Shown piece by piece: positions 482-40,054 of a stretch of DNA of 51,078 bases. The stretch's first letter is position 1. Each line of letters opens with the position of its first letter. The stretch is from a virus (taxonomy: Duplodnaviria > Caudoviricetes), in the IMG/VR virus record IMGVR_UViG_3300036830_000098, positions 1 to 51,078 of that record; one strand, given 5' to 3'. A program made the position numbers and the translations under genes. The notes below the pieces were generated by a model, which was given only the letters and a program-made list of their open reading frames with translations, had not been told where the DNA came from and searched no databases.

Positions 482-2425
482 ATGCGCGACCTTCCCGTGT
501 TAAAACTCGACCTGAGTAAGCCCGAAACCTTCGGTAATGTCGCGGAAAAACTGGACGCTGACGAACGCCGCCGGCTCGCTACCGACCTGATTGAACTCAT
601 TGGTATCGACGAACAATCCATGTCGGACTGGGCCGGGAAGGCCCAAGGCTACCTCGATAAAGTGGACGCGGAAGGCGACGACTTCCCGCAGGATCGCGAA
701 CAGGAAGGCGCTGCCGAAGAACCGCCACCGTCCACGGAAATGACGCTTGCCGCCGTCATCCAGTTTTCGGCACGCGCGACGGATGCCCTGCTAGGCGAGC
801 CCGATCTGGCACGCGCCAGCGAACCCGGCGGCGAAGGACTTGCCTCTTGGGTTTCAAGCCAGCTCCGCACGCGCGATCCGAACTGGACCCTGGATACCGA
901 TCCGCTTATCGTCCATATGTCGGTCACCGGCCTGGCATGGCGCAAGCGCGATTTTGACGACGACGATAAGGTATTCCACTCTTATTTTCTACCGTCTGTC
1001 GGCTCCAACTCCGTCATCATAAACAGCAACGTACGGTCGATCGAACGTGCTCCGCGCATCACGCATCAATTTGATCGCTACCCTTACGAAATCGAGCGTT
1101 CTATCGAGCGCGGCAGATGGATCGACTACGAACCGAATTACGACGAACAAGACCCGCAGGCGCCGAAACGCTTTTACGAAACCGACGCATGGCTCGATCT
1201 TGACGGCGACGAAATAGACGAGCCGTGGACGATTGTCATCTCGCGCGACGACATGGCGGAAGTAGTTCACATCCGCCCGCGCTGGTCGAAAAAGACGGTC
1301 GTAAACACCGAAGAAGCACTGTTCTTCAATCCTATCCGCCGATTCTATCCGTACCGCTTCCTGCCGGACCCGAAAGGCAGCTTCTTTCCGATGGGCTTCG
1401 GCAAATTGCTGGATCGCACAGAGAGTTCGGCAAACCGCTTGCTGGCGTCCATCGTAGAGACGGCAAAGAGCGAAAGCGAGAATGGCGGTGTTCTTGCCGG
1501 CGGCGGCTTCGGGCTGCCCGATAAAGTCGAACTGAAAAACAACCGCATTGCGACTGTCAACACAGACGGCGCTCCGCTTGCTAATAAGTTTTCGGCGTTC
1601 CCCGTCAAGTCGGTGTCGCCGGGCTCCGTAGCAGTCCTTGAAAAGATCATGACGCTGGGCGACCGCCTGGCCGGAACGCTCAATCTTTTGGAGAACGCAC
1701 CTGCGTCAATGACCGCTACGATGGCGAAGGGCATCATTGACACCGGAACGCAGGTACAGTCCGCCGTACACCGCCGCATGGTCGCGTCCATGACGCAAGA
1801 AATGCGCATGTTCGTACAGATGGCCGATGCCTACGGACAGCTTCCCAGCAGCGTCTCCGTATCGAACGCGAACGGCATTTCGGTAACGGCGGACCCGCAA
1901 CTCGCGACCGAAATGCAGCGCACGGCGCTGGCCGGCATCTATATGGAATTGATGAAAGACCCCATGACGAAATGGGATGAGGTGCGCTTGCGCCTATACC
2001 GCACTTTGCGGCTGCCCGACCCGCAGAAATTGCTCGGCTCGCCGCCGCAGCAGCCGGAAGCGACGCCTTATGAAAAGATCGAAGGCGGCGTAAAGGTGGC
2101 GAAAGTCAACATCGAAAAGATGAAGGCCACGGGTGCCGTTGCCGTACAGCTTACGCAGGCGCTCTTGAACATGGTTGAGGCGAGCGGCGGAATGCTTGAC
2201 AACCGTACAGCGCTGTTGCAAATGGCGCAGTTGGAACAAGCCGTACAATCCTTGATGCAGGACGCGAACAATGCAGGCAGCAGCCTTAGCGGATTGGCTC
2301 CGCAGCCCGGAAACTCAGGCGCTTCTAACGTACCTGCGGTTCCGGCAGGAACCGGCGATATCAATGCTGCTCCAGGGGCTCCCGGTGCCGCCGGAAACGC
2401 AAGCCAAGGCGGCGGGATGCAATGA
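482..2425 (+). CDS. Portal protein
   Basis: 647 aa; acidic N-terminus, GLAWRK, WLDLDGDEIDEPW and F.PMGFGKLL segments, helical C-terminus; precedes the GroES-like and scaffold genes as in related podophages. Confidence 0.8.
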   Translation: MRDLPVLKLDLSKPETFGNVAEKLDADERRRLATDLIELIGIDEQSMSDWAGKAQGYLDKVDAEGDDFPQDREQEGAAEEPPPSTEMTLAAVIQFSARATDALLGEPDLARASEPGGEGLASWVSSQLRTRDPNWTLDTDPLIVHMSVTGLAWRKRDFDDDDKVFHSYFLPSVGSNSVIINSNVRSIERAPRITHQFDRYPYEIERSIERGRWIDYEPNYDEQDPQAPKRFYETDAWLDLDGDEIDEPWTIVISRDDMAEVVHIRPRWSKKTVVNTEEALFFNPIRRFYPYRFLPDPKGSFFPMGFGKLLDRTESSANRLLASIVETAKSESENGGVLAGGGFGLPDKVELKNNRIATVNTDGAPLANKFSAFPVKSVSPGSVAVLEKIMTLGDRLAGTLNLLENAPASMTATMAKGIIDTGTQVQSAVHRRMVASMTQEMRMFVQMADAYGQLPSSVSVSNANGISVTADPQLATEMQRTALAGIYMELMKDPMTKWDEVRLRLYRTLRLPDPQKLLGSPPQQPEATPYEKIEGGVKVAKVNIEKMKATGAVAVQLTQALLNMVEASGGMLDNRTALLQMAQLEQAVQSLMQDANNAGSSLSGLAPQPGNSGASNVPAVPAGTGDINAAPGAPGAAGNASQGGGMQ

Positions 2426-2504
2426 AATCGAACGACTGCTGAAGCAGTCGCCGGACAAGATAAAAGAAATCTTCGAGAACGCAGCCAAGGAAATGAATAA
2501 ATGA
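2271..2504 (+). CDS. Small conserved head-region protein, overlapping the portal 3' end
   Basis: 77 aa helical protein (ADWLRSPETQ); stop abuts the GroES-like ATG; occupies the usual slot between portal and GroES-like genes. Confidence 0.6.
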   Translation: MQAAALADWLRSPETQALLTYLRFRQEPAISMLLQGLPVPPETQAKAAGCNEIERLLKQSPDKIKEIFENAAKEMNK

Positions 2505-2971
2505 GCAACGTCGGAGTCCACGATTTCGCTATACCCCACGAGTTCGTGCAGCCGACGCGCGATATGGTTATCATCCGCATGCCGTTGCCGCCGAAGATGG
2601 TCGGAAGTGTTCATGTTCCCGACCTGGTGCGCGACATGGCGCAGCACAATGTCATGGCTGGTCGCGTCGTCGCGATGGGTCCGCTGGCATTCACCTACAA
2701 AGACGGCAACGGCTTGGCGCGGCAGGATGTAAAAATTGGCGATTGGGTCGTCATCCGTCCTTTCGCCGGTACGCTCATGCAAGGCGGCAAATTGCAGATC
2801 ACGAGCGGCTGGCGCTACGTATCCAGTTTCCAAGACGTGCTTGGTTTGCTGCCGGCCGACAAGATGCCGGACCCGTCAACCTTGGTATGGGACGACGCCG
2901 AAGAACCGCCGAAGACCGCAACGCAAGCGGAATGGCCGAGCAACGTGCGAGAAACGATAAGGATGCCATGA
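2501..2971 (+). CDS. GroES-like co-chaperonin
   Basis: P..D.VII, GSVHVPD, GRVVAMGP and VKIGDWV motifs of the Cpn10 fold. Confidence 0.85.
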   Translation: MSNVGVHDFAIPHEFVQPTRDMVIIRMPLPPKMVGSVHVPDLVRDMAQHNVMAGRVVAMGPLAFTYKDGNGLARQDVKIGDWVVIRPFAGTLMQGGKLQITSGWRYVSSFQDVLGLLPADKMPDPSTLVWDDAEEPPKTATQAEWPSNVRETIRMP

Positions 2972-2972
2972 C

Positions 2973-3635
2973 ATGAGCGACTTTAACACTATGCTGCGTG
3001 AACAGGCGCGCAACGGGCTCCAAGCCCAGCTTGACGCAGCCGTGACCAACGGTGACGCGGCAGCCGCGCGCAAGGTAACCGCCGACCTGGAAAAGCTGGC
3101 GGTGTCCACTGCGCCCAAAGCGCCGCCGTTTTCCGATACGGAAATCCGCGCCGAACTGGACAAGTTGCCGTGGTTCGGCACCGATCCGAAAAAGTCGGCC
3201 AAAGCGGTAGAGTTCGGCAAGACGCTGGACCCGAAGAAATTCGCTACCGCGGCACTGTTTGCGGCTGCGCTGGTCAAGGCCGTCGATGATGAGTTTAAGC
3301 CGCCGGTTGCCGAAACTAAGGAAGAAGACGCCGAAGGCGAGGAAGAGGGCGCCGAAGGCGAGGAAGAGGGCGCTGAAGAGGGCAAGACCAAACCACCGAA
3401 GAAACGCGCCACGGACGGCCCCAACGATGGCGACACGGCAGGGAATCGTACCCGGCGCCCATCCGGCCCGTGGGCGAAAATTACCGATGCGCCGGCCGAC
3501 GTGCAAAAGGAAATCAAACGCCAGGCCGACAAGTTCGTGGCCTCCACGGCTCCCAAAGAGCTGCGCGAGAAATTCGTTACGAAGGCACTGGAAAGCCATT
3601 ACGCAACCTACCTGCGCACCAAGGGAAAGAAGTGA
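2973..3635 (+). CDS. Putative scaffolding protein
   Basis: Helical, PWFG motif, acidic linker with a 21-bp tandem repeat (3329-3373), basic C-terminus; position after the GroES-like gene. Confidence 0.6.
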   Translation: MSDFNTMLREQARNGLQAQLDAAVTNGDAAAARKVTADLEKLAVSTAPKAPPFSDTEIRAELDKLPWFGTDPKKSAKAVEFGKTLDPKKFATAALFAAALVKAVDDEFKPPVAETKEEDAEGEEEGAEGEEEGAEEGKTKPPKKRATDGPNDGDTAGNRTRRPSGPWAKITDAPADVQKEIKRQADKFVASTAPKELREKFVTKALESHYATYLRTKGKK

Positions 3636-9078: not shown

Positions 9079-9441
9079 TTAAGTCACGGCCCCGTCGTCG
9101 CCAGTACGCGAAACCTGCATATCCATGACAACACCAGTGCCGTCACTGTTATTGATATTGATGATGCGCAACCGCACCCAGCCGGCGCGTTGCGCCCGCC
9201 GCGATGTAGCGACGACAAGATTCTGCCATTGATCGATGGGGCGGGCTGAAGCATCCGGGTCGCCGCCGAATATTTTCAACTCCATCACTACTTGGACTTC
9301 AGGCGCTACCGGCGATGGCGTTATGAGGCTTTGCGCGACAGACTGAAACGTAAGCGCCGCGCGCGAAACGTTGACAGCGATGTTATCGCCTCTGTTGATC
9401 GGCAGCCAGCCGGTCGCGCCGCCGATAAAGTCAGCGTACAC
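9079..9441 (-). CDS. Hypothetical beta-rich virion protein
   Basis: 120 aa; stop abuts the next ATG; GWVRLR strand motif. Confidence 0.6.
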   Translation of the reverse strand: MYADFIGGATGWLPINRGDNIAVNVSRAALTFQSVAQSLITPSPVAPEVQVVMELKIFGGDPDASARPIDQWQNLVVATSRRAQRAGWVRLRIININNSDGTGVVMDMQVSRTGDDGAVT

Positions 9442-9504
9442 CGTATCGTATTGTGCGGATATCCGCGCTGCGGCGCCGCCCGGCCTATAGAAAATAGAAG
9501 CCTC

Positions 9505-9762
9505 CTACTTGCTGCCGCGATTGAAGGCCGTATTTCCTGAGAACCGCGTACCGCTGCCATCGCCGTCGCCGTGTTCGGATTTCGCCATGCGACGATTGCT
9601 CATGCCGATATCGGCCACGGCACCGGGGTATCGCTTCAAACCGCCTTCGGGTAGTCCGCCGCGCCCCGTGAATCTCGTCGTCGGCGGACCCATAGGGTTA
9701 GGCACGCAATCGTTACTGCCCGTGGGGTTAAAGCCGGTCTTTTGGCCCTTGAATTTGGTCAT
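9505..9762 (-). CDS. Small basic Gly-rich disordered protein
   Basis: MTKFKGQK start with GGGAAAGG SD-like sequence. Confidence 0.55.
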   Translation of the reverse strand: MTKFKGQKTGFNPTGSNDCVPNPMGPPTTRFTGRGGLPEGGLKRYPGAVADIGMSNRRMAKSEHGDGDGSGTRFSGNTAFNRGSK

Positions 9763-9826
9763 TTTCGCTTGCCTTTCCCGTGGTTGCCGCGAGACTAGCA
9801 CAACGGAACTGCCGCGGAAAGCCCCG

Positions 9827-10189
9827 CTATTTGCCGGATTTGCCGCCGTCTAGCTTTGTTTCCATGCGTTCAAGCCGACTGTCGAGCCGGGTAAACTGTG
9901 CCTTTATGTCTGCACTCAGCAGCTCCCAGGATTTGTAGAAGCTGTCCCGGCGTACGAACGTGTCCCGCGTAAAAAGTTCGACCTCCCGAACTTTCTCCCT
10001 GACAGCCGCCACGCTTTCGCCAAATGATCTCCCTAAATTATCTATGTCCGCCTCAAAGCGATCCCGGTTATTATCGATTTCTTCCCGAACGGCGTCGCGA
10101 ACGCGGCTGAGTCCCCATGTAAGGGCGATCACCGCAGCGACAACGTTGAAACAGAGAGATGATAAAGCGATCGATTCGGTAAACGTCAT
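9827..10189 (-). CDS. Single-TM coiled-coil lysis-region protein
   Basis: N-terminal hydrophobic helix plus coiled coil ending LERMETKLDGG. Confidence 0.65.
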   Translation of the reverse strand: MTFTESIALSSLCFNVVAAVIALTWGLSRVRDAVREEIDNNRDRFEADIDNLGRSFGESVAAVREKVREVELFTRDTFVRRDSFYKSWELLSADIKAQFTRLDSRLERMETKLDGGKSGK

Positions 10190-10536
10190 GGCTTAGGCGG
10201 CGCGGGCAGCGCGGGCGCGGGAGGGCCACCGTCGAGTTTTGCCTCGACGCGCTGCACCTGAGAGCTGATGTAGACGATGGCCGTTTCGACGCGGCTCAGT
10301 CTTTGGTCAGCCAGGGTCTGCGCATCGCGGGTCTTGGCGAGCGATTGATACACGGTCTGGAACCGAGTATCGGAGCCTTTTGCGACCTCTTCAGTCCTTG
10401 ATGAAACCTGGTCGAGCTTGTCGGAAAGGCCGCGGTAATTCGACGACGCGATCCAGATATTCGTGGCGATAATTCCAACCGTGCTGATGACTGCGACAAC
10501 GGCAGCTGGCCCTATCGTACTGTCAAATTTCAGCAT
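10186..10536 (-). CDS. Single-TM coiled-coil lysis-region protein
   Basis: N-terminal TM, coiled coil ending VQRVEAKLDGG, Pro-rich tail. Confidence 0.65.
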   Translation of the reverse strand: MLKFDSTIGPAAVVAVISTVGIIATNIWIASSNYRGLSDKLDQVSSRTEEVAKGSDTRFQTVYQSLAKTRDAQTLADQRLSRVETAIVYISSQVQRVEAKLDGGPPAPALPAPPKP

Positions 10537-11204
10537 TCTTTCGTCCTTTTGCCGGGAGCGCTGCGATAGAGCTGCATATGATGGTAACGCGCCGCGCCGT
10601 TGTCGCCCAACGCTGGTGCCTGATAGAGATGGATCAACGGCGTCGGACGCCTAAAAGGTAACCTTGGGGGGCTTGGAATTGGCGAATCTGTCACGAGATC
10701 GTGACCGCCCTCATCCTCGTTACAGTAGCTCGATTGCCACGGGATCGGATTCAGCAGATCGCAAAAAGAAGCAAAACCGGGGTACGGTTCACCAAAGACA
10801 ACGCGCCCGGTCGGCACGTCTCCGTCGAGGATCGCCAACCCGCAGAACACATCCGCACGCGCGGCCCCTAGTGAATGGCCGCCAACCCAAAGCTGCTTTT
10901 CTGGCCGGCGCAACGATTTTGCCTTAACCCACACAGCTCCCATGAAGAGGAGAAAACCATTGTGAACTTGCCCGAGGCGCGCATCGACTGAAGGCGCTAC
11001 GATAAAATCGAGGTCAACTAACCATTCGGCAGGGTCATAAGTGCCTCGGAAAATGAAAACGTCAGCGTCGTCGAAATACTTCACGCCGAAGCGGACACCA
11101 GTAAAGCCGCTCGCTTCGGACAGGTAATCCCAGGCGATTGGGGCTTCACCCGGATAGGCGTAAATGCCGCAGCAAAGGTCTGCAATGTCTTGGTCAGTCG
11201 GCAT
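10530..11204 (-). CDS. Class 3 lipase (alpha/beta hydrolase)
   Basis: FRGT, VHNGF, nucleophile elbow GHSLG, DLV, C-terminal HHM catalytic His. Confidence 0.85.
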   Translation of the reverse strand: MPTDQDIADLCCGIYAYPGEAPIAWDYLSEASGFTGVRFGVKYFDDADVFIFRGTYDPAEWLVDLDFIVAPSVDARLGQVHNGFLLFMGAVWVKAKSLRRPEKQLWVGGHSLGAARADVFCGLAILDGDVPTGRVVFGEPYPGFASFCDLLNPIPWQSSYCNEDEGGHDLVTDSPIPSPPRLPFRRPTPLIHLYQAPALGDNGAARYHHMQLYRSAPGKRTKEC

Positions 11205-11219
11205 TGCGGACTTTGCAAG

Positions 11220-12104
11220 TTAGAATTTGTAGTCCAGCCCAACCTTCACGACGTTGATAGACGGGCAACTCTGGCCCGTTGCACAGTTCGATGCCCCGGA
11301 CGGAAACTGATAGTTCTCGTAGCGTGCGTCAACGAACCAATGCTGCTGATCGATTGCGAACGTCACGCCTGCGCCGCCGACCATTCCAGTCGTACCCCAA
11401 CCGCTTTGCGCGGCGCCAAAGAAAATGTAAGGCGCAATCGTGTTCGCGGTCAGGATCGACGAAAGGCCTGTGGTGTTTGCCGGCGCAGGCGCCGATCCGA
11501 AGAATGTCGAGAACGGCGTACCGAGCTTGATGATCTCTTCCGCCAGATAGTGCGGGCTGGACTGCCCCGCGACCGGGCCGGAAGTACCGCCGTAGGTGTA
11601 GTCGATTGCAACCTCGGGACCGAAGAAGAAAGTACCGTTCCAGAACTGGTAGCCGCCTTGGACACCGATATTCTGGCCGCCAGCCGCGACCGAACCGTTG
11701 ATGCCGCCCGCCAGTACGTTCACATTGGTCGAAATGCCAGCAATATTGAAGCCGCCGTACCAGCCTGTGCAGGCGATCGGCGTGCATGGCGTAAAGGCCG
11801 CGAGCGCCAGTTTAGGCACAGGCTTGGCCGCATCGGCGGCGCGGGCCGAATACGGGCTCAAGATCAGCAGGGCGAAAACGACGGCGCCGGCCGCGCCGAA
11901 TTTCGACGATGACGGGCCGCCGGTATCGACGGGCTTTGACGGAGCCTTATTCGGCACCGCGTAGACCAATATGGTTCCGAGGACGCTGGCAAGCGCGGCC
12001 ATGTTCTCGGGCGACACGTCAAATGAAAATCCGTACTTCTGATTGAGCCAAAGAAGAATGCCGGGGAGCAGCGCCGCAATGGCTTTGTCGAGAACGGTCA
12101 GCAT
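11220..12104 (-). CDS. Holin-like two-TM domain fused to an Omp25/RopB-type outer-membrane beta-barrel
   Basis: Strong SD AGGAGAGG before ATG 12104; two TMs ending YAVPNK; internal signal-like segment ...LSPYSARA/AD; barrel TGWYGG, GVQGGYQF, GGAGVTF; terminal Phe beta-signal KVGLDYKF. Confidence 0.7.
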   Translation of the reverse strand: MLTVLDKAIAALLPGILLWLNQKYGFSFDVSPENMAALASVLGTILVYAVPNKAPSKPVDTGGPSSSKFGAAGAVVFALLILSPYSARAADAAKPVPKLALAAFTPCTPIACTGWYGGFNIAGISTNVNVLAGGINGSVAAGGQNIGVQGGYQFWNGTFFFGPEVAIDYTYGGTSGPVAGQSSPHYLAEEIIKLGTPFSTFFGSAPAPANTTGLSSILTANTIAPYIFFGAAQSGWGTTGMVGGAGVTFAIDQQHWFVDARYENYQFPSGASNCATGQSCPSINVVKVGLDYKF

Positions 12105-12114
12105 GTTGCCTCTC

Positions 12115-12588
12115 CTACCTGGATACAAATTCAAAGTGCATGGGATCGGTGCGACCTTGGTAGTCGCCGCCCCATAGCGCACCCTGCTTTTTGAAAGCAT
12201 CGACAACCATGTTGTCGATCGTGCCGTGCCCGGTGTTGAATCCGTTGGTGGTTGGCGAAATATCGACCGCGCAGGCCCACGAATGATTAGACCAGTTGTT
12301 GCTGCCGGCGATGTTGCGGATATTGAAACAGCCGCCCCAGTCGCTCGCGCCAGTTTGATCGACGGCTGCCTGATCCTGACCGCATTGCGCCCAAATGTCG
12401 GCAAACACGGCGGTCAACGGCGGTACGATCAACTTATGAACGAGAATGCCGTGCGTCATTGGCTGCTTGTCATAGTACATGACGAACGGCGCGTTCATGT
12501 GCACGAGATTCAAATCCTGCCAGCCCGGCGAGTGAAAATCGCCGTAAAAGGCGTTTTTCGATATAGTGTCGTCGTGCGGCCAGTTCAT
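12115..12588 (-). CDS. Endolysin, peptidase M15 family
   Basis: R.IAG...WSNHSWACAVDI (SxHxxxxAxD), WGG, DPMHFE. Confidence 0.88.
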   Translation of the reverse strand: MNWPHDDTISKNAFYGDFHSPGWQDLNLVHMNAPFVMYYDKQPMTHGILVHKLIVPPLTAVFADIWAQCGQDQAAVDQTGASDWGGCFNIRNIAGSNNWSNHSWACAVDISPTTNGFNTGHGTIDNMVVDAFKKQGALWGGDYQGRTDPMHFEFVSR

Positions 12589-12594
12589 AGCGGG

Positions 12595-12624
12595 AATGTA
12601 CTACGAAGGGTTTCAGTATGTCAA
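12595..12624 (-). promoter_or_regulatory. Sigma70-type promoter, probably giving a leaderless endolysin mRNA
   Basis: TTGACA-N18-TACATT-N6-ATG with no SD. Confidence 0.5.
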
Positions 12625-12717
12625 TTAGCTACGATCTGCTGTTTTTCTGTAAAACGACAGCCAAATCACGGCGATCATTGATGGCGCCAAAATCCAGAAG
12701 ATAAAGGGAGGAATCAT
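12625..12717 (-). CDS. 30-aa single-TM peptide
   Basis: GGAG SD; MIPPFIFWILAPSMIAVIWLSFYRKTADRS. Confidence 0.5.
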   Translation of the reverse strand: MIPPFIFWILAPSMIAVIWLSFYRKTADRS

Positions 12718-12771: not shown

Positions 12772-15700
12772 CTATCCCGCCTCCTTCAAGAACGCCGGGC
12801 TGTTGTCGTTTGATGCTGGGTCGAGATCGCGTTTAAGCAGGTAGTTGGTCTGGATGTAGCAGTAGCCGTTGCCGCCCGTGCCGATATAGACGCGCCCCGG
12901 CACTACTTGGTCACCATCCATGCTTACGACGCCTTCAATTGTCCCGCACTGATAGGTCGAAATCTTCGCCCACGTCGAGGCATTATCGTCAGATTCCCAA
13001 ATTCCATAAACACCATTATACCAAGCACTGACGTAGATCGACGGCCACGACTTGCCTGATTTGATCGCCCCAAATCCGAAATACCCTGGCTCCTTCATAT
13101 TAGCGACCGCCGCCCATGTTGCTCCGCCATCTTGTGAGTACTCGAATGTTTCTGCGGCCGGATGTGTCGAGTATGAATTGCCCTGCGGTCCCATGCTTGC
13201 GTAAAGATAACCGGAGTGCCCCGGCATCGCCTTAAGCGTCTGGTTTGCGCCGCCGCCACCGAAGATCGTTGATGATTGCAGGACCGGAGTGCTGCAATTG
13301 GTCATCTTGTAGGTGCCGAATAGCGAATTGTAGAAATAAAATGTGTTTGGCGTAACGCGATCTGCCGCAACTATGTTTGCATCGAGATAGTAAGCAAATG
13401 GAAAACCAGAACCGGGCGGCACGATTTGACCAAAGCCTGTTGCTGGGGATGACCCTGGGTCTGAGGCATTTACCGTAATAGTCGTGCCGTGGCCAACGTT
13501 CGTTGCGGTGAATGTCCCGTTGTAGCCGGATGGAGAAAAACCATAGACGGTGAACGTCTTGTTGTTCGTCGCGTTGAATATGTATGGATCAATGTCTGTC
13601 GTGAAGGTAATTACCCCTCCGCTGTAGCTCGCCGCCGTGATCTTCGCAGGCGTTGGAACGCCGGGAAACTTCGGCATATTCCAAGTTTGACCACCGTCAA
13701 GCGTGCAATAGGCGTAGTCGTTATTAGCTATGACCACAGCCATGTTAGTTGGTGACGCCGCGGCGATTGCCCCACCGCGCTGATCGAACCATTGCACATA
13801 GCCGCCGCCTGTATAAGCATTCGTGAAAGCGGAGTCAGTGAGCTCGAAGGTCTGATTTGTATTGTTCTGGTTTGCTTCAATCCAGCAGCCGTTTGCCTCC
13901 GTCGTTCCCGTCACGCCATAGATGCAAATCTTATCGCCATTGCCGAGGCGGTTTACAGCAACGGGAACGGTGACTTGAATTTTCCCGCTTCCGTTATTTT
14001 GGACGTTGGTGATGCCAAGCTGACCTGCAAGCGATGTTCCCGGCTGCGTTGTCGCGGCAACGAGATAGTTTCCGATTTGATTGACAACGTTAGCGTAGAT
14101 AGAATGATTAAGCGTGAAGTGTGTCGCGTCATCCACAGTGACCGTGTAGTAGCCCGTCACGCCATTATTCGGGGCGTCGTTATAACCAAAGACTTGAACC
14201 ATGCTACCCGCACCCGCCGACCAAGTGGTGAGCGCCGCCGTTGATGGAACTAGGAATTGTATCTTGCCTCCATTATTCAGGACGTGTGTATTATCGTTAG
14301 TCAGTGTCTGGCTGTAAGTTCCGAACAGTGTCCATGTTGCTCCACCATCGTTCGAATAGCCGCTTTGGTTGCCGCCAAGAATAAAATAACTAATATATCC
14401 CGCGATGAAATTTGGATCGCTCGTCGCCCAATCCAGACCAAAACCGACTTCTAGCGAACTTGTATTAAGTGTCGTTGTATTTTGCTGCGTCGGATAAGTG
14501 CTTGGGTTAGCCGTAAGTTTATAGATCGATCGATCCTGCACGCCAACAATGGGCGAGCCGTTAGGTGAAATGACGGTCCAAGAATCCAGCGTCTCCGTCC
14601 CGGCAAGCCTGCTATTCCAGACAAAGCTTACAGCCGTGCTAGGCGGATTTGTGTACCAAGGGCCGATGCCTTCGCCAAACCACAGGCCGTTACTGTCCGA
14701 TTTATCAAACTGAATGTCACCAGCCGACATGGCATATTCGTTCGTCCATGCAGCCCAAGGTACATCGGTTGCCGAGCGCGTGAAATTAAGCGAGCCAGTC
14801 CAGGTTGATCCAGTATTAGACGAAACGTTCAAGTGCCCGAAACCTGATACGGTCACAATATGCGTCGCGTCATTCGGATCGACAGCAACGGAATGTAGAC
14901 CGCTTGCTCCCGCCGCAGTTACGTTCGTCCACGATCCAGAAGAATATTTCCAAAGGCTACCGCTCGAATTGGAAACTGTCGTACCGCCGTCGATGGCCCA
15001 TACGTTGCCGCCGCTCGCTGCCACGACCATATGCTGCATCGACGTAGGACCGCCAGGGATTTCCGCCCAGGTCGATCCAGCGTTTGTTGTTTGGTAAGTC
15101 GTACCATCGTAAGCCGTGCCGCCAGAAACATAGCTGCCTGGGTTGCTCGCAAGATTGACGACGACGCTTGTGCCACTCGTCCCAGCCTGTGCAATGTAGA
15201 TGCCGTTATAACTGGAAGGGCTAACGCCTTGGATACTAATGCGGCTACCTACTGCGAAATCAGAGCGGAGATTGGGGATCGTAAAAGTCGCTTGGTTCGT
15301 CGCCCAACTTGCGGCGCTGACGGCAACGACATGGTTCGTGAAAACATATGCCGTGTTTGTCGCGCCACCCGTGGTGCCTGAAGATGGGTCAAAGGCAATG
15401 TTGTAATTCGGATAGTTAGACCCTCCAACGCTATCGGCAGTCGCCATAGGAATTGCTGAAATCAAAGTCGAAGTATTGAAACCATCGGTCGTTGACCAAA
15501 GACCGTTTCGCTCCGTGCCTGCAATGACGATGTTAGCGTTGTTCGGATCAACAGCCATCTTGCGGCCGTTCATGCGATAAGTACCGTTGGGCGTCATAGC
15601 GGCGCCGACTTGCATCGCTTCGCCGCCTACGGTCTGCGATATGTTGACTGTGTAAGTTCCAGTGCCTCCAGTACCAGCCGTGGTTATTTCGGTGCCCGGT

Positions 15701-16218
15701 AAGATGCCGGCTCCAGTAACAAAACTATATTGCGTGATGTTGCCGGTGATCGCCGTAACGGTAAGTGTCGTGCCAGAGATCGATCCGGTGGTCTGCGCGC
15801 CACCAAAGTTAGTGCGCACCCACGACGCCCCACGATCAGTCGAAAGAAACACACCGCCTAGATATTGAACATAAATCGTGGACGATAGGCTTGGCGCGCT
15901 GGTGATCTCTTCGCAGGGACCCCCAAAGAGAAAAACCTGGTTGTTTCCGGTTCCGACAACGCCGGCCCAATTCACAGGAAGCGTTGTGGCCGTCAAGAGC
16001 CCGCTGAAAGTCTGAGTTCCTTTATTGTAAATGTACGGAGTTGAACTATCCTGCCGCGCGATGATGGTATTGCCATCAGGCGAAACGTCAAGCCCAACAG
16101 CCCACCCGCCACCGCCGATCTTGAGAGTAAATTCGCCCGCTGGATTAACCGGGCCCCCTGTTCCGTGTATCCAGCCAGCGGCAACAACGGCGATAGCTAC
16201 GAGTAAAAGGCGCTTCAC
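12772..16218 (-). CDS. Large GH74/BNR-repeat beta-propeller protein (putative receptor-binding protein or depolymerase) with signal peptide
   Basis: IGGGGW, ARQD, MAVDPNN, several S.DGG.TW Asp-boxes, GVQDR, RVYIGTGGNG; inserted Thr-rich beta repeats; N-terminus MKRLLLVAIAVVAAG. Confidence 0.75.
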   Translation of the reverse strand: MKRLLLVAIAVVAAGWIHGTGGPVNPAGEFTLKIGGGGWAVGLDVSPDGNTIIARQDSSTPYIYNKGTQTFSGLLTATTLPVNWAGVVGTGNNQVFLFGGPCEEITSAPSLSSTIYVQYLGGVFLSTDRGASWVRTNFGGAQTTGSISGTTLTVTAITGNITQYSFVTGAGILPGTEITTAGTGGTGTYTVNISQTVGGEAMQVGAAMTPNGTYRMNGRKMAVDPNNANIVIAGTERNGLWSTTDGFNTSTLISAIPMATADSVGGSNYPNYNIAFDPSSGTTGGATNTAYVFTNHVVAVSAASWATNQATFTIPNLRSDFAVGSRISIQGVSPSSYNGIYIAQAGTSGTSVVVNLASNPGSYVSGGTAYDGTTYQTTNAGSTWAEIPGGPTSMQHMVVAASGGNVWAIDGGTTVSNSSGSLWKYSSGSWTNVTAAGASGLHSVAVDPNDATHIVTVSGFGHLNVSSNTGSTWTGSLNFTRSATDVPWAAWTNEYAMSAGDIQFDKSDSNGLWFGEGIGPWYTNPPSTAVSFVWNSRLAGTETLDSWTVISPNGSPIVGVQDRSIYKLTANPSTYPTQQNTTTLNTSSLEVGFGLDWATSDPNFIAGYISYFILGGNQSGYSNDGGATWTLFGTYSQTLTNDNTHVLNNGGKIQFLVPSTAALTTWSAGAGSMVQVFGYNDAPNNGVTGYYTVTVDDATHFTLNHSIYANVVNQIGNYLVAATTQPGTSLAGQLGITNVQNNGSGKIQVTVPVAVNRLGNGDKICIYGVTGTTEANGCWIEANQNNTNQTFELTDSAFTNAYTGGGYVQWFDQRGGAIAAASPTNMAVVIANNDYAYCTLDGGQTWNMPKFPGVPTPAKITAASYSGGVITFTTDIDPYIFNATNNKTFTVYGFSPSGYNGTFTATNVGHGTTITVNASDPGSSPATGFGQIVPPGSGFPFAYYLDANIVAADRVTPNTFYFYNSLFGTYKMTNCSTPVLQSSTIFGGGGANQTLKAMPGHSGYLYASMGPQGNSYSTHPAAETFEYSQDGGATWAAVANMKEPGYFGFGAIKSGKSWPSIYVSAWYNGVYGIWESDDNASTWAKISTYQCGTIEGVVSMDGDQVVPGRVYIGTGGNGYCYIQTNYLLKRDLDPASNDNSPAFLKEAG

Positions 16219-39418: not shown

Positions 39419-40054
39419 ATGGCAAAAAAGACGAAAATCGAGCCGCAGGGCTTCTTGGTGGGATATGCGCGAGTTTCGACCCAAGATCAGAATTTGGACC
39501 TCCAACTTGATGCCCTGCGAAAAGCAGGCGTCAAAGAGGACAATCTGCACGTCGAAAAGATATCCGGCGCGGCTTCCAAGCGCCCGGCGCTCGATCTCGC
39601 CATCATGGACCTACGCGAGGGCGACACGCTGCTGGTCTGGCGGCTCGACCGCTTCGCCCGGTCCATGCGCGACCTCTACGCCAGGCTCGATCGGGTCTAT
39701 GCCAAGGGCGCGAAGTTCCGCAGCCTTACCGAGTCCTTCGACTTCGACACCTTCACGGGCAAGTTCGTCCTCGGCATCCTTGGACTGGTGGCCGAGCTGG
39801 AACGTCAGATCATCGCGCACCGCACAAAGGCGGGCATCGACACATGGAAGGCCAAGGGTAAGGGCCAGTGGGGCCGACAGGCCATTCTCAGCGAGGCCAA
39901 GGTCAAGCAGGCTGGCAAGATGCTGAACAAGGGAATGAGCGGGCCGCAGGTGGCGAAGCACTTCAAGGTTTCGACACCGACCATATATCAGCACTATGCG
40001 CTGAACCGTTCTGGCCGTGGCCTGCGGTTCATCCGTAAGACCAAACCAAAGTGA
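39419..40054 (+). CDS. Small serine recombinase (resolvase/invertase) with C-terminal HTH
   Basis: GYARVSTQDQ, SG...RP, GDTLLVWRLDRFARS, AELER, VSTPTIY. Confidence 0.95.
   Translation: MAKKTKIEPQGFLVGYARVSTQDQNLDLQLDALRKAGVKEDNLHVEKISGAASKRPALDLAIMDLREGDTLLVWRLDRFARSMRDLYARLDRVYAKGAKFRSLTESFDFDTFTGKFVLGILGLVAELERQIIAHRTKAGIDTWKAKGKGQWGRQAILSEAKVKQAGKMLNKGMSGPQVAKHFKVSTPTIYQHYALNRSGRGLRFIRKTKPK

Follow-up and report, generated by a model that had tools for sequence, protein, structure and literature searches.

A holin-like membrane domain joined to an outer-membrane beta-barrel through an apparently cleavable internal signal peptide in the lysis cassette of uncultured phages

How phages without spanins breach the outer membrane of their hosts is a largely open question, especially for hosts in which this membrane is stapled by beta-barrels and not by Lpp; the available text of bioRxiv 10.1101/515445 puts the phages of Gram-negative hosts without a recognisable spanin at about 15%. 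The question is raised anew by a locus in the stretch of DNA analysed here (the window), the complete 51,078-bp virus record IMGVR_UViG_3300036830_000098 of IMG/VR (Duplodnaviria; Caudoviricetes), which carries direct terminal repeats. A single open reading frame (ORF) on its minus strand, at 11220..12104, encodes a protein of 294 amino acids (aa), hereafter referred to as P0001, in which a holin-like domain with two transmembrane (TM) segments is followed by what resembles an internal signal peptide and by an outer-membrane beta-barrel. A preliminary description of the DNA had proposed two solutions for this arrangement, namely a polyprotein that is cleaved into an inner-membrane holin and an outer-membrane protein (OMP), or an uncleaved tether between the two membranes that acts as a unimolecular spanin. 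Is the fusion real, is it processed, and do its parts serve in lysis? The ORF is a true late gene of the phage, and its product is a precursor in two parts. We hold, with slightly more confidence than doubt, that it is best explained as a whole by a polyprotein cut by signal peptidase, both products of which belong to the lysis cassette. This route to two lysis-cassette proteins from one gene looks real and previously undescribed, and a reading of the barrel as an accessory protein is a serious rival to the lysis roles inferred for both products.

The gene starts with an ATG at 12104 and ends with a stop codon at 11222-11220. It begins 11 nucleotides (nt) after the gene of an M15 endolysin, and its Shine-Dalgarno (SD) sequence, GGAGAGG, lies 4-7 nt 5' of the ATG and overlaps the endolysin stop codon. 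Kyte-Doolittle hydropathy gives three hydrophobic segments (residues ~2-20, ~35-50 and 69-84), and in the N-terminal domain helices are placed by AlphaFold2 (AF2) at residues 4-24 and 32-49, with low values of the predicted local distance difference test (pLDDT). No ATG occurs in frame from Met35 to the core of the internal signal, where the only start-type codons are a TTG (Leu46) and a GTG (Val50), both without an SD sequence. The preliminary description had reported a single ORF directly after the endolysin, two TM segments of which the second ends in YAVPNK, a basic linker, a third hydrophobic segment with an A-R-A/A-D site, no in-frame ATG with an SD sequence ahead of the internal signal and no o-spanin with a lipobox. 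It is correct in every point that could be checked, its coordinates are exact, and the minus strand and the gene's own SD sequence can be added to it; for the last point, a heuristic regular-expression scan for a lipobox in 9300-12700 and in 2.5 kb on each side gave no o-spanin candidate. The parts of the ORF are as follows.

11220..12104, minus strand: whole ORF of P0001 (294 aa), with holin-like 2-TM domain, linker, internal signal peptide and outer-membrane beta-barrel
11946..12104, minus strand: N-domain, residues 1-53, with TM1 (~2-20) and TM2 (~35-50), ending YAVPNK; type A (hydropathy, AF2)
11901..11945, minus strand: linker, residues 54-68, with 3 Lys, 1 Asp and GGPSS; predicted to be cytoplasmic and to form the n-region of the internal signal (sequence)
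11838..11900, minus strand: h- and c-regions of the internal signal, residues 69-89, ending S-P-Y-S-A-R-A (hydropathy, alignment conservation)
between nt 11838 and 11837, minus strand: predicted signal peptidase I cut, after Ala89 (site conservation)
11223..11837, minus strand: mature barrel, residues 90-294, with 8 strands and C-terminal YKF (AF2, structure matches)
11837-11832, minus strand: Ala90-Asp91, the predicted mature N-terminal Ala-Asp (sequence)
11786-11784 and 11771-11769, minus strand: Cys107 and Cys112 (alignments)

At 11882-11898 (minus strand), where the internal signal peptide begins, the ORF also contains a GC-rich hairpin (6 GC pairs) with a T-rich tract behind it. An intrinsic terminator at 11898-11882 was considered and rejected; terminator-like sites in the region are at the level of shuffled sequence (6 against 4.8+-2.6), so the hairpin is probably just Gly/Ala-rich coding sequence.

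Is the C-terminal part truly an outer-membrane barrel? The AlphaFold check suggested in the preliminary description was run as AF2 with 84 sequences and gave a confident model (pLDDT 84, predicted template-modelling score 0.78), in which eight antiparallel strands of the C-terminal 205 residues close a barrel. The best structural match in VIA-align was the N-terminal barrel of OprF (Z 15.3, root-mean-square deviation 2.2, 123 residues aligned), followed by OmpA (13.8, 2.6, 124), PagL (13.8, 2.7, 130) and NspA (13.3, 3.0, 137); the top Foldseek matches were OmpA (E 1e-6), Ail and NspA, and many phage entries named 'outer membrane protein beta-barrel' in BFVD have the same fold. Pfam gives P0001 itself a sub-threshold OmpA_membrane row (E 0.28; 11.4 bits against a cut-off of 21) and no row for PF13505 (OMP_b-brl), the family to which its relative P0035 belongs with 39 bits (cut-off 28.7) and to which P0019, P0021 and P0022 are assigned by precomputed matches. 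The barrel had earlier been called Omp25/RopB-like and ending in Phe, a likeness which holds at the level of the fold and of OMP_b-brl and is given more weight by the Ala-Asp N-terminus discussed below. The protein ends in G-L-D-Y-K-F, an aromatic C-terminal signal of the type recognised by the beta-barrel assembly machinery (BAM), with F294 conserved at >=90% in the first homologue alignment, and in the homologues with a plain signal, which begin with Met-Lys-Lys and a hydrophobic core, an export signal precedes the barrel.

The only invariant positions in the 84-sequence alignment are Gly and Tyr, and at >=90% only Cys, Pro and one Ala are added. The conserved parts of the barrel are a Cys pair just before strand 1 (Cys107/Cys112, invariant in alignment A1 and >=90% conserved in alignment A4) and the long turn that links strand 4 to strand 5. 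With the N- and C-termini in the periplasm, as barrel topology implies, both are predicted to lie on the periplasmic side, an unusual trait for a small OMP that points to a partner in the periplasm. The Cys-x4-Cys loop (11769-11786, minus strand, in the window) is longer in some subfamilies. The strand 4-5 turn comprises 26 residues (~196-221) with two short helices, and one of the surface loops has only 3 residues. The catalytic triad of PagL is His-Ser-Glu. A PagL-like lipid A enzyme was rejected, and such catalysis is unlikely despite the same fold, because no Ser, His or Glu column reaches 90% conservation in the 84-sequence alignment.

Does the fusion recur? A word-indexed protein search with P0001 gave 21 homologues, and a signal-plus-barrel profile of 20 sequences, searched against 1.84 billion representatives, matched 3366 proteins at E<=1e-3 and 130 at <=1e-30. 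The N-terminal extensions were counted in the best 150 profile matches, of which 143 reach the profile start. In 72 of these 143 representatives the signal is preceded by 56-132 additional aa, the other 71 have at most 25 aa, and none lies between; the architecture thus recurs far more often than expected by chance. A Met start is present in 71 of the 72 extended forms, and hydropathy gives two hydrophobic peaks before the signal in 46 of them, one in 21, three in 3 and none in 2. Full-length fusions from other sources include P0002 (97% identical to P0001) and P0003 (77%), while other homologues are either forms of ~220 aa that begin with the signal peptide or forms of ~300-320 aa with different N-termini. 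The recurrence asked about in the preliminary description is thus found, and the two halves also occur as separate genes. The worry of a lost stop codon or a frameshift, voiced there as well, is answered by contigs of related phages. An independent 1401-nt contig from a soil run of another study spans the lipase gene, the barrel, the junction and the start of the ORF, and keeps the frame even though 69 nt are replaced by 78 nt; no indels were reported across contigs of related phages from four sequencing runs. The fusion is a widespread architecture of uncultured phages and neither a one-off nor an artefact.

The two halves behave as exchangeable modules. In P0004 a barrel 98% identical to that of P0001 follows a different N-domain and signal, and the switch falls exactly at SARA|AD. 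The same module boundary is seen in contigs of two runs, in which position 11840 (codon of Ala89) is joined to 12125 (end of the endolysin gene). The barrels of close relatives carry four N-domains, denoted A, B (P0006, 80% identical), C (P0005, 77%) and D (P0004, 98%). A linker motif GGPSS is common to P0003, P0005, P0006, P0008, P0009, P0010 and P0014, across four N-domain types; it may be kept as protein sequence or as a nucleotide signal, namely a GG-rich ribosome-binding site of an internal start. Separate small TM ORFs homologous to fused N-domains lie upstream of plain barrels at locus L003 (4.8e-8), where stop and start codons overlap as ATGA, at L008 (3e-11) and L018 (1.7e-5), and ~700 nt upstream at L006 (1e-8). 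A FastTree phylogeny of the mature barrel was calculated from 145 rows (74 fused, 71 plain) and 197 columns; the fused/plain label changes 43 times on it, against 48.6+-3.2 for shuffled labels and hence nearly randomly, and the well-supported branches alone force at least 28 changes. Fusion, fission or module replacement has occurred many times in the barrel family. So many changes argue that the two arrangements are functionally equivalent, i.e. that a fused gene of the P0001 type may do the same as a split pair of a small TM gene and a gene for a barrel with its own signal peptide. All members come from viral or metagenomic sequence: tblastn of P0001, P0035 and P0032 found no relative in 50,697 GenBank phage records, the barrel found none in 72,556 plasmids, two pattern scans of 185,579 species genomes gave no family member, and NCBIfam had no match for five barrel proteins, the endolysin or the lipase.

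Is the precursor cut at the internal signal? In the window Lys68 precedes the hydrophobic core (69-84), which is followed by Ser-Pro-Tyr and Ala87-Arg-Ala89|Ala-Asp, with the features of a signal peptidase I substrate, including the absence of Pro at +1. Residues around the site were counted in 74 fused and 71 plain forms aligned to the profile. Ala occupies -1 in 70/74 fused and 62/71 plain forms, -3 in 59/74 and 64/71, and +1 in 54/74 and 60/71; Asp occupies +2 in 59/74 and 61/71, and Asp91 is invariant in the first homologue alignment. Pro or Gly is present at -3 to -7 in 58/72 fused and 45/71 plain forms, and the uncharged h- plus c-stretch has a median of 21 residues in fused against 17 in plain forms. 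The linker is suitably charged as well. In the 46 fused forms with two peaks it carries on average 3.37 Lys and Arg residues against 0.67 in the TM1-TM2 loop, the linker having more in 42 forms, the two being equal in 4 and the loop never being the higher, so that the charges are predicted to follow the positive-inside rule for a cytoplasmic linker. Met occurs within 12 residues of the n/h boundary in only 25 of the 72 fused forms, and the window has none; hence an internal start cannot be the general route to the barrel.

The residues after the site add a further argument. In Brucella, Agrobacterium and other Hyphomicrobiales, a covalent link made by L,D-transpeptidases at a conserved N-terminal alanyl-aspartyl motif attaches outer-membrane barrels to peptidoglycan, according to two reviews, PMC10787603 and PMC12729407. 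Since such an Ala-Asp is meaningful only at a free N-terminus, and is conserved in the fused forms as well as in the plain ones, a cut after Ala89 is suggested; this equal conservation is the strongest single argument for it. The internal signal of P0001 is therefore likely, on sequence grounds, to be cleaved. The cleaved polyprotein of the preliminary description thus gains indirect support from the conserved Ala-x-Ala and Ala-Asp, the charges of the predicted cytoplasmic linker, the occurrence of the halves as separate adjacent genes and the interchange of fused and split states.

Is the N-terminal part a holin? As in holins, a small membrane domain stands beside the endolysin gene: two TM helices within 53 residues, 11 nt past an endolysin without a signal. 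Type A domains also exist on their own, as proteins P0023-P0028 of 57-69 aa that are 69-83% identical to the N-domain of the window, and the look-alikes of the domain in the ESM Atlas are unnamed viral proteins of ~69 aa; in IMG/VR a search with type A gave no match. The N-domains of 85 fused forms, with linkers trimmed, and of the 6 stand-alone type A proteins were clustered by BLAST into 23 components and do not form a single family; hhalign among the eight largest families joins only H with J (95.5%) and G with J (91.6%). Family H is the Pfam family PF23987, Phage_holin_10 (P0035: 8.8e-14, 51.7 bits against a cut-off of 27); the N-domain of P0039 scores 25.1 bits on the same model, under the cut-off, and that of the window gave no profile match to it. 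The term 'holin-like' used at the outset is therefore supported in that N-domains of homologous fusions include Phage_holin_10, and is not supported for the N-domain of the window itself, which matches no holin family in Pfam or PHROGs. Whether the N-part is a holin (or antiholin) for the signal-less M15 endolysin is in our estimate an even question.

The surroundings of the gene have the look of a lysis cassette. The order in the window is M15 endolysin, barrel ORF, Lipase_3 and two TM-coiled-coil ORFs (here TMCC1 and TMCC2), the genes being closely spaced or overlapping. This strand also carries tail-fibre-like genes 5' of the cassette and the large terminase 3' of it; the replication genes are on the other strand. 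The neighbours are the following.

12115..12588, minus strand: endolysin, 157 aa, Peptidase_M15_4 (PF13539 2.2e-13; phrog_17001 endolysin 4e-15)
10530..11204, minus strand: Lipase_3 / alpha-beta hydrolase, 224 aa, with GHSLG (PF01764 4.7e-10; phrog_21992 esterase/lipase 2.1e-11)
10186..10536, minus strand: TMCC1, 116 aa, with N-terminal TM, hydrophilic charged helical region and Pro-rich tail (sequence); overlaps the 3' end of the lipase gene (10530-10536)
9827..10189, minus strand: TMCC2, 120 aa, with N-terminal TM and charged helical region (sequence; weak DUF1664 0.006); overlaps TMCC1 by 4 nt
loci L003, L005, L006, L007, L010 and L014: TM-helical ORF 3' of the barrel gene (by eye)

The endolysin sequence shows no signal or signal-arrest-release segment, and the enzyme would therefore need a holin to reach the wall. 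The lipase gene lies 15 nt downstream of the barrel ORF, and its product, likewise without a signal peptide, is possibly a Gram-negative counterpart of mycobacteriophage LysB, i.e. a lipolytic factor for lysis of the outer membrane that is released by the holin. TMCC1 and TMCC2 have no significant family in Pfam or PHROGs and only sub-threshold rows in NCBIfam, and share only a C-terminal ER.E.KLDGG motif (BLASTP 9e-5); an i-spanin-like role is possible for them, as is one as holin and antiholin.

The association with lysis genes extends to other phages. From 15 distinct related loci 8 candidate upstream ORFs were submitted to domain searches, and 6 of the 8 matched Phage_lysozyme (L005), GH25 (L007, L008) or PG_binding_1 (L002, L012, L018). 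The order of the window is repeated at L014, with fused barrel, Lipase_3 (7.4e-16; 1330-1935, plus strand) and TM-helical ORF, and a weak alpha/beta-hydrolase match (0.0036; 2410-3615, plus strand) lies just upstream of the fused barrel of L010. Directly downstream of the barrel, inspection by eye showed in 6 of the 15 loci and in the window an ORF of 95-167 aa that starts with a hydrophobic segment and is otherwise hydrophilic and helical. When the endolysin, the lipase, TMCC1, TMCC2 and neighbouring genes of the window were compared with 17 related loci by tblastn, only the barrel was common to them, and a heuristic lipobox scan of the 15 related loci gave no convincing o-spanin. Tentatively, and with slightly less confidence than doubt, we suggest that the barrel, rather than being an accessory which modifies the surface, serves lysis at the outer membrane, in concert with the lipase, the TM-coiled-coil proteins or both.

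The mechanism that would fit these data can be outlined. TM1 and TM2 would enter the membrane as a hairpin that leaves the N-terminus and the linker on the cytoplasmic side, and the third hydrophobic segment would enter SecYEG with its N-terminus in and C-terminus out, starting the export of the barrel. A cut by host signal peptidase I after Ala-Arg-Ala89 would leave an ~89-residue fragment with three TM segments in the inner membrane and release a barrel of ~205 residues, which BAM would insert into the outer membrane by way of the YKF end. The Ala-Asp N-terminus of the barrel would probably be linked to peptidoglycan by host L,D-transpeptidases, as in the Omp25-type proteins of Rhizobiales. 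Because export needs an energised membrane, the barrel would have to be in place before the holin fires. The N-part would serve as holin, or as partner of a holin, for the endolysin, and the barrel would work at the outer membrane. A bolder extension makes the barrel the missing outer-membrane lysis factor for phages of alphaproteobacteria that lack Lpp: exported before lysis, inserted by BAM and stapled to peptidoglycan by Ala-Asp, it would stay inert until the endolysin frees its tether, whereupon its Cys loop and long turn would break the outer membrane, either by themselves or with the lipase and the TM-coiled-coil proteins. It would then be a substitute for spanins that is based on a beta-barrel where spanins use a lipoprotein, and would be supplied by a phage polyprotein processed by signal peptidase. 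In such a scheme barrel and holin would be supplied 1:1, since both come from one precursor. Taken as a whole, this bolder extension is unlikely.

Several points weigh against a cleaved precursor with two lysis products. Cleavage is deduced from conservation only; Ala at -1, -3 and +1 is common in any Ala-rich region, and the h- plus c-stretch of the fused forms, being ~4 residues longer than in the plain forms, could be cut less efficiently. The barrel tree, a FastTree of representatives, has many weak branches, with 51 of 142 left open. As for the holin, type A has no match to a Pfam or PHROG holin family whether P0001, the free protein P0023 or other type A members are used, hhalign relates it to family G with a weak probability of 18% and to family H with 0.3%, and the holin label of Phage_holin_10 is itself unverified here, as a literature search found no paper on its prototype. 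The TM-coiled-coil proteins could be the true holin and antiholin. The Ala-Asp and the place in the cassette may be no more than a legacy of an Omp25-type host gene that was captured and came to rest beside the lysis genes, and as no cellular, plasmid or cultured-phage relative was found, nothing but the motif ties the family to the Rhizobiales. A temperate lifestyle is also possible, given a small serine recombinase (211-aa ORF at 39419-40054, plus strand; Resolvase domain 2.2e-41), which could be an invertase or resolvase rather than an integrase.

The most telling of the alternatives accepts the cleavage and denies the lysis role: the barrel would derive from a captured Omp25-type gene of a host and be an accessory protein of the surface, serving for example in superinfection exclusion, in the masking of receptors on debris or in stabilising the envelope during infection, and the 2-TM domain would be a small membrane protein with an unrelated or other role, fused as a mere neighbour. 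Phage-encoded 8-stranded barrels are common in BFVD, the 84-sequence alignment bears no catalytic or pore-like signature, the N-domain of the window is without a holin family match, and accessory genes do stand beside lysis genes in known phages, as lambda bor does. However, the barrel accompanies lysis genes in otherwise unrelated phages with four different endolysin types, its fusion partners include a Pfam holin family, and its gene belongs to a tightly packed late operon in a phage whose complete genome gave no tyrosine integrase; moreover, its conserved parts (Cys loop and strand 4-5 turn) are predicted to be periplasmic, an unusual pattern for a surface decoy. On this balance we consider the accessory role unlikely. 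It is quite improbable that the barrel is made mainly from an internal start before the signal, the long fusion product being minor or regulatory, as with phage genes that are nested in frame. An in-frame start does occur at the beginning of the signal in L010 (GTG-Arg-Lys) and L017 (ATG-Pro-Glu-Asn-Gly-Ala-Lys), a Met follows GGPSS in P0005, P0008, P0010 and P0014, and the 25 fused forms with a Met near the n/h boundary have been mentioned; but the remaining 47 of 72 have no such Met, the candidates in the window (TTG of Leu46, GTG of Val50) lie inside TM2 without an SD sequence and L014 has none either, and translation from the upstream SD sequence and ATG must in any case run on into the barrel.

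The second solution of the preliminary description, in which three helices stay in the inner membrane while the barrel sits uncleaved in the outer one as a unimolecular spanin, fares no better. The share of spanin-less phages cited at the outset, the failure of the heuristic scans to find a lipoprotein o-spanin near the gene or in the 15 related loci, and the longer and hence more anchor-like hydrophobic segment of the fused forms speak for it. Only ~24 residues, however, separate the predicted cut site from strand 1 (median 18 to the first Cys), and a connector of that length is too short to cross the periplasm. The Ala-x-Ala and Ala-Asp are kept as in the plain forms, in half of the family the barrel is a secreted protein in its own right, with free exchange between the two states, and we know of no precedent for assembly by BAM of a barrel whose N-terminus is held in the inner membrane. 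With so short a connector, an apparently selected cleavage motif and a split form that appears equivalent, an uncleaved tether is judged very improbable. That a lost stop codon or a frameshift merged two genes during sequencing or assembly would be conceivable for a metagenome-assembled virus, and for this the cross-check was made on contigs of related samples; given 72 of 143 representatives with the same architecture, the full-length P0002 and P0003 from other sources, an independent contig that stays in frame through the 69-to-78-nt replacement, and the lack of indels in four runs, such an artefact is scarcely credible.

The signal-peptidase-cut polyprotein preferred here can be set beside known systems. 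Canonical cassettes combine holin, endolysin and spanins, e.g. lambda S, R and Rz/Rz1, with class II holins such as S21 68. The N-part of P0001 resembles the latter in following a cytoplasmic endolysin gene and in having two TM segments with both ends predicted to be cytoplasmic, and the neighbouring TM-helical ORFs resemble i-spanins in outline; in contrast, the N-part has no family match and no highly charged C-terminal tail and continues into an exported barrel, the heuristic scans gave no lipoprotein o-spanin, and the barrel gene precedes the TM-helical ORFs, unlike in i-spanin/o-spanin pairs. In phage T1 the unimolecular spanin gp11 consists of a lipoprotein signal at the N-terminus, a periplasmic domain of ~90 residues and a TM at the C-terminus. 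It shares with P0001 the presence of targeting signals for both membranes in one polypeptide, whereas in P0001 the order is reversed, the outer-membrane part is a barrel, the connector has ~24 residues and a signal peptidase site lies between the parts; P0001 has neither a lipobox Cys nor a periplasm-spanning domain. PF23987 (the Pam3 gp28 family) is matched by family H N-domains of homologous fusions, which occupy the position of the N-domain of the window, whereas type A is not a match. Host signal peptidase is known to cut internal signals in the cytochrome b/c1 precursor FbcH of Bradyrhizobium and in viral polyproteins. The FbcH precursor is alike in that a polytopic membrane domain is followed by an internal signal that releases an exported protein, though the proteins and the purpose differ; a literature search for a precedent among bacterial polyproteins gave nothing usable.

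The peptidoglycan-tethered OMPs of the Rhizobiales/Hyphomicrobiales (Omp25, Omp2b), as far as the available passages of PMC10787603 and PMC12729407, which cite Godessart et al. 2021, describe them, share with P0001 a small OMP_b-brl barrel, a C-terminal YKF and an Ala-Asp mature N-terminus, which in P0001 is Ala90-Asp91 after the predicted cut. The P0001 family differs from them in being phage-encoded and found only in viral and metagenomic sequence, with a peptidoglycan linkage predicted from the motif, and adds the Cys-x4-Cys loop, the long periplasmic turn and, in half of its members, the 2-TM domain with the internal signal. Another solution to the last barrier without spanins is the disruptin gp28 of phage phiKT, a cationic peptide in the available text of bioRxiv 10.1101/515445 and neither a beta-barrel nor a polyprotein. 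The Lipase_3 of the window parallels in position the LysB esterase of mycobacteriophages, which acts, according to the accessible part of PMC5707550, on mycolyl-arabinogalactan and is likewise neither barrel nor polyprotein. The literature searches found no description of a holin-OMP fusion, of a barrel-type substitute for spanins or of a polyprotein strategy processed by signal peptidase in a phage.

P0001 defines a large family, found only in uncultured phages, in which an outer-membrane barrel is a constant component of the lysis cassette. In half of the sequence clusters a holin-type domain precedes the barrel in the same protein, the two being connected by an internal signal peptide that is apparently cleavable. 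Should the processing prove true, this would be a clear case of a phage that uses the signal peptidase of its host to obtain two proteins of two membranes from one ORF, a polyprotein strategy familiar from animal RNA viruses. For annotation it follows that a 2-TM extension before a signal peptide and an OMP barrel is not a mis-called start. The family also makes it feasible to test whether a barrel can take the place of an o-spanin, and its mature Ala-Asp end suggests a Rhizobiales-like host range for the phage group.

Some further features of these loci were noted. No tRNAs were found in the window. Coiled-coil proteins with a C-terminal TM, i.e. tail-anchored mirror images of the type with an N-terminal TM, are neighbours in L017 (4664-5029, plus strand), L004 (5424-5741, minus strand) and L018 (2542-2769, plus strand). 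Directly upstream of the endolysin gene of the window, at 12772-16218 (minus strand), a protein of 1148 aa with a BNR/Asp-box repeat and no PHROG match is encoded, which is probably a tail fibre or spike with a sialidase-like beta-propeller.

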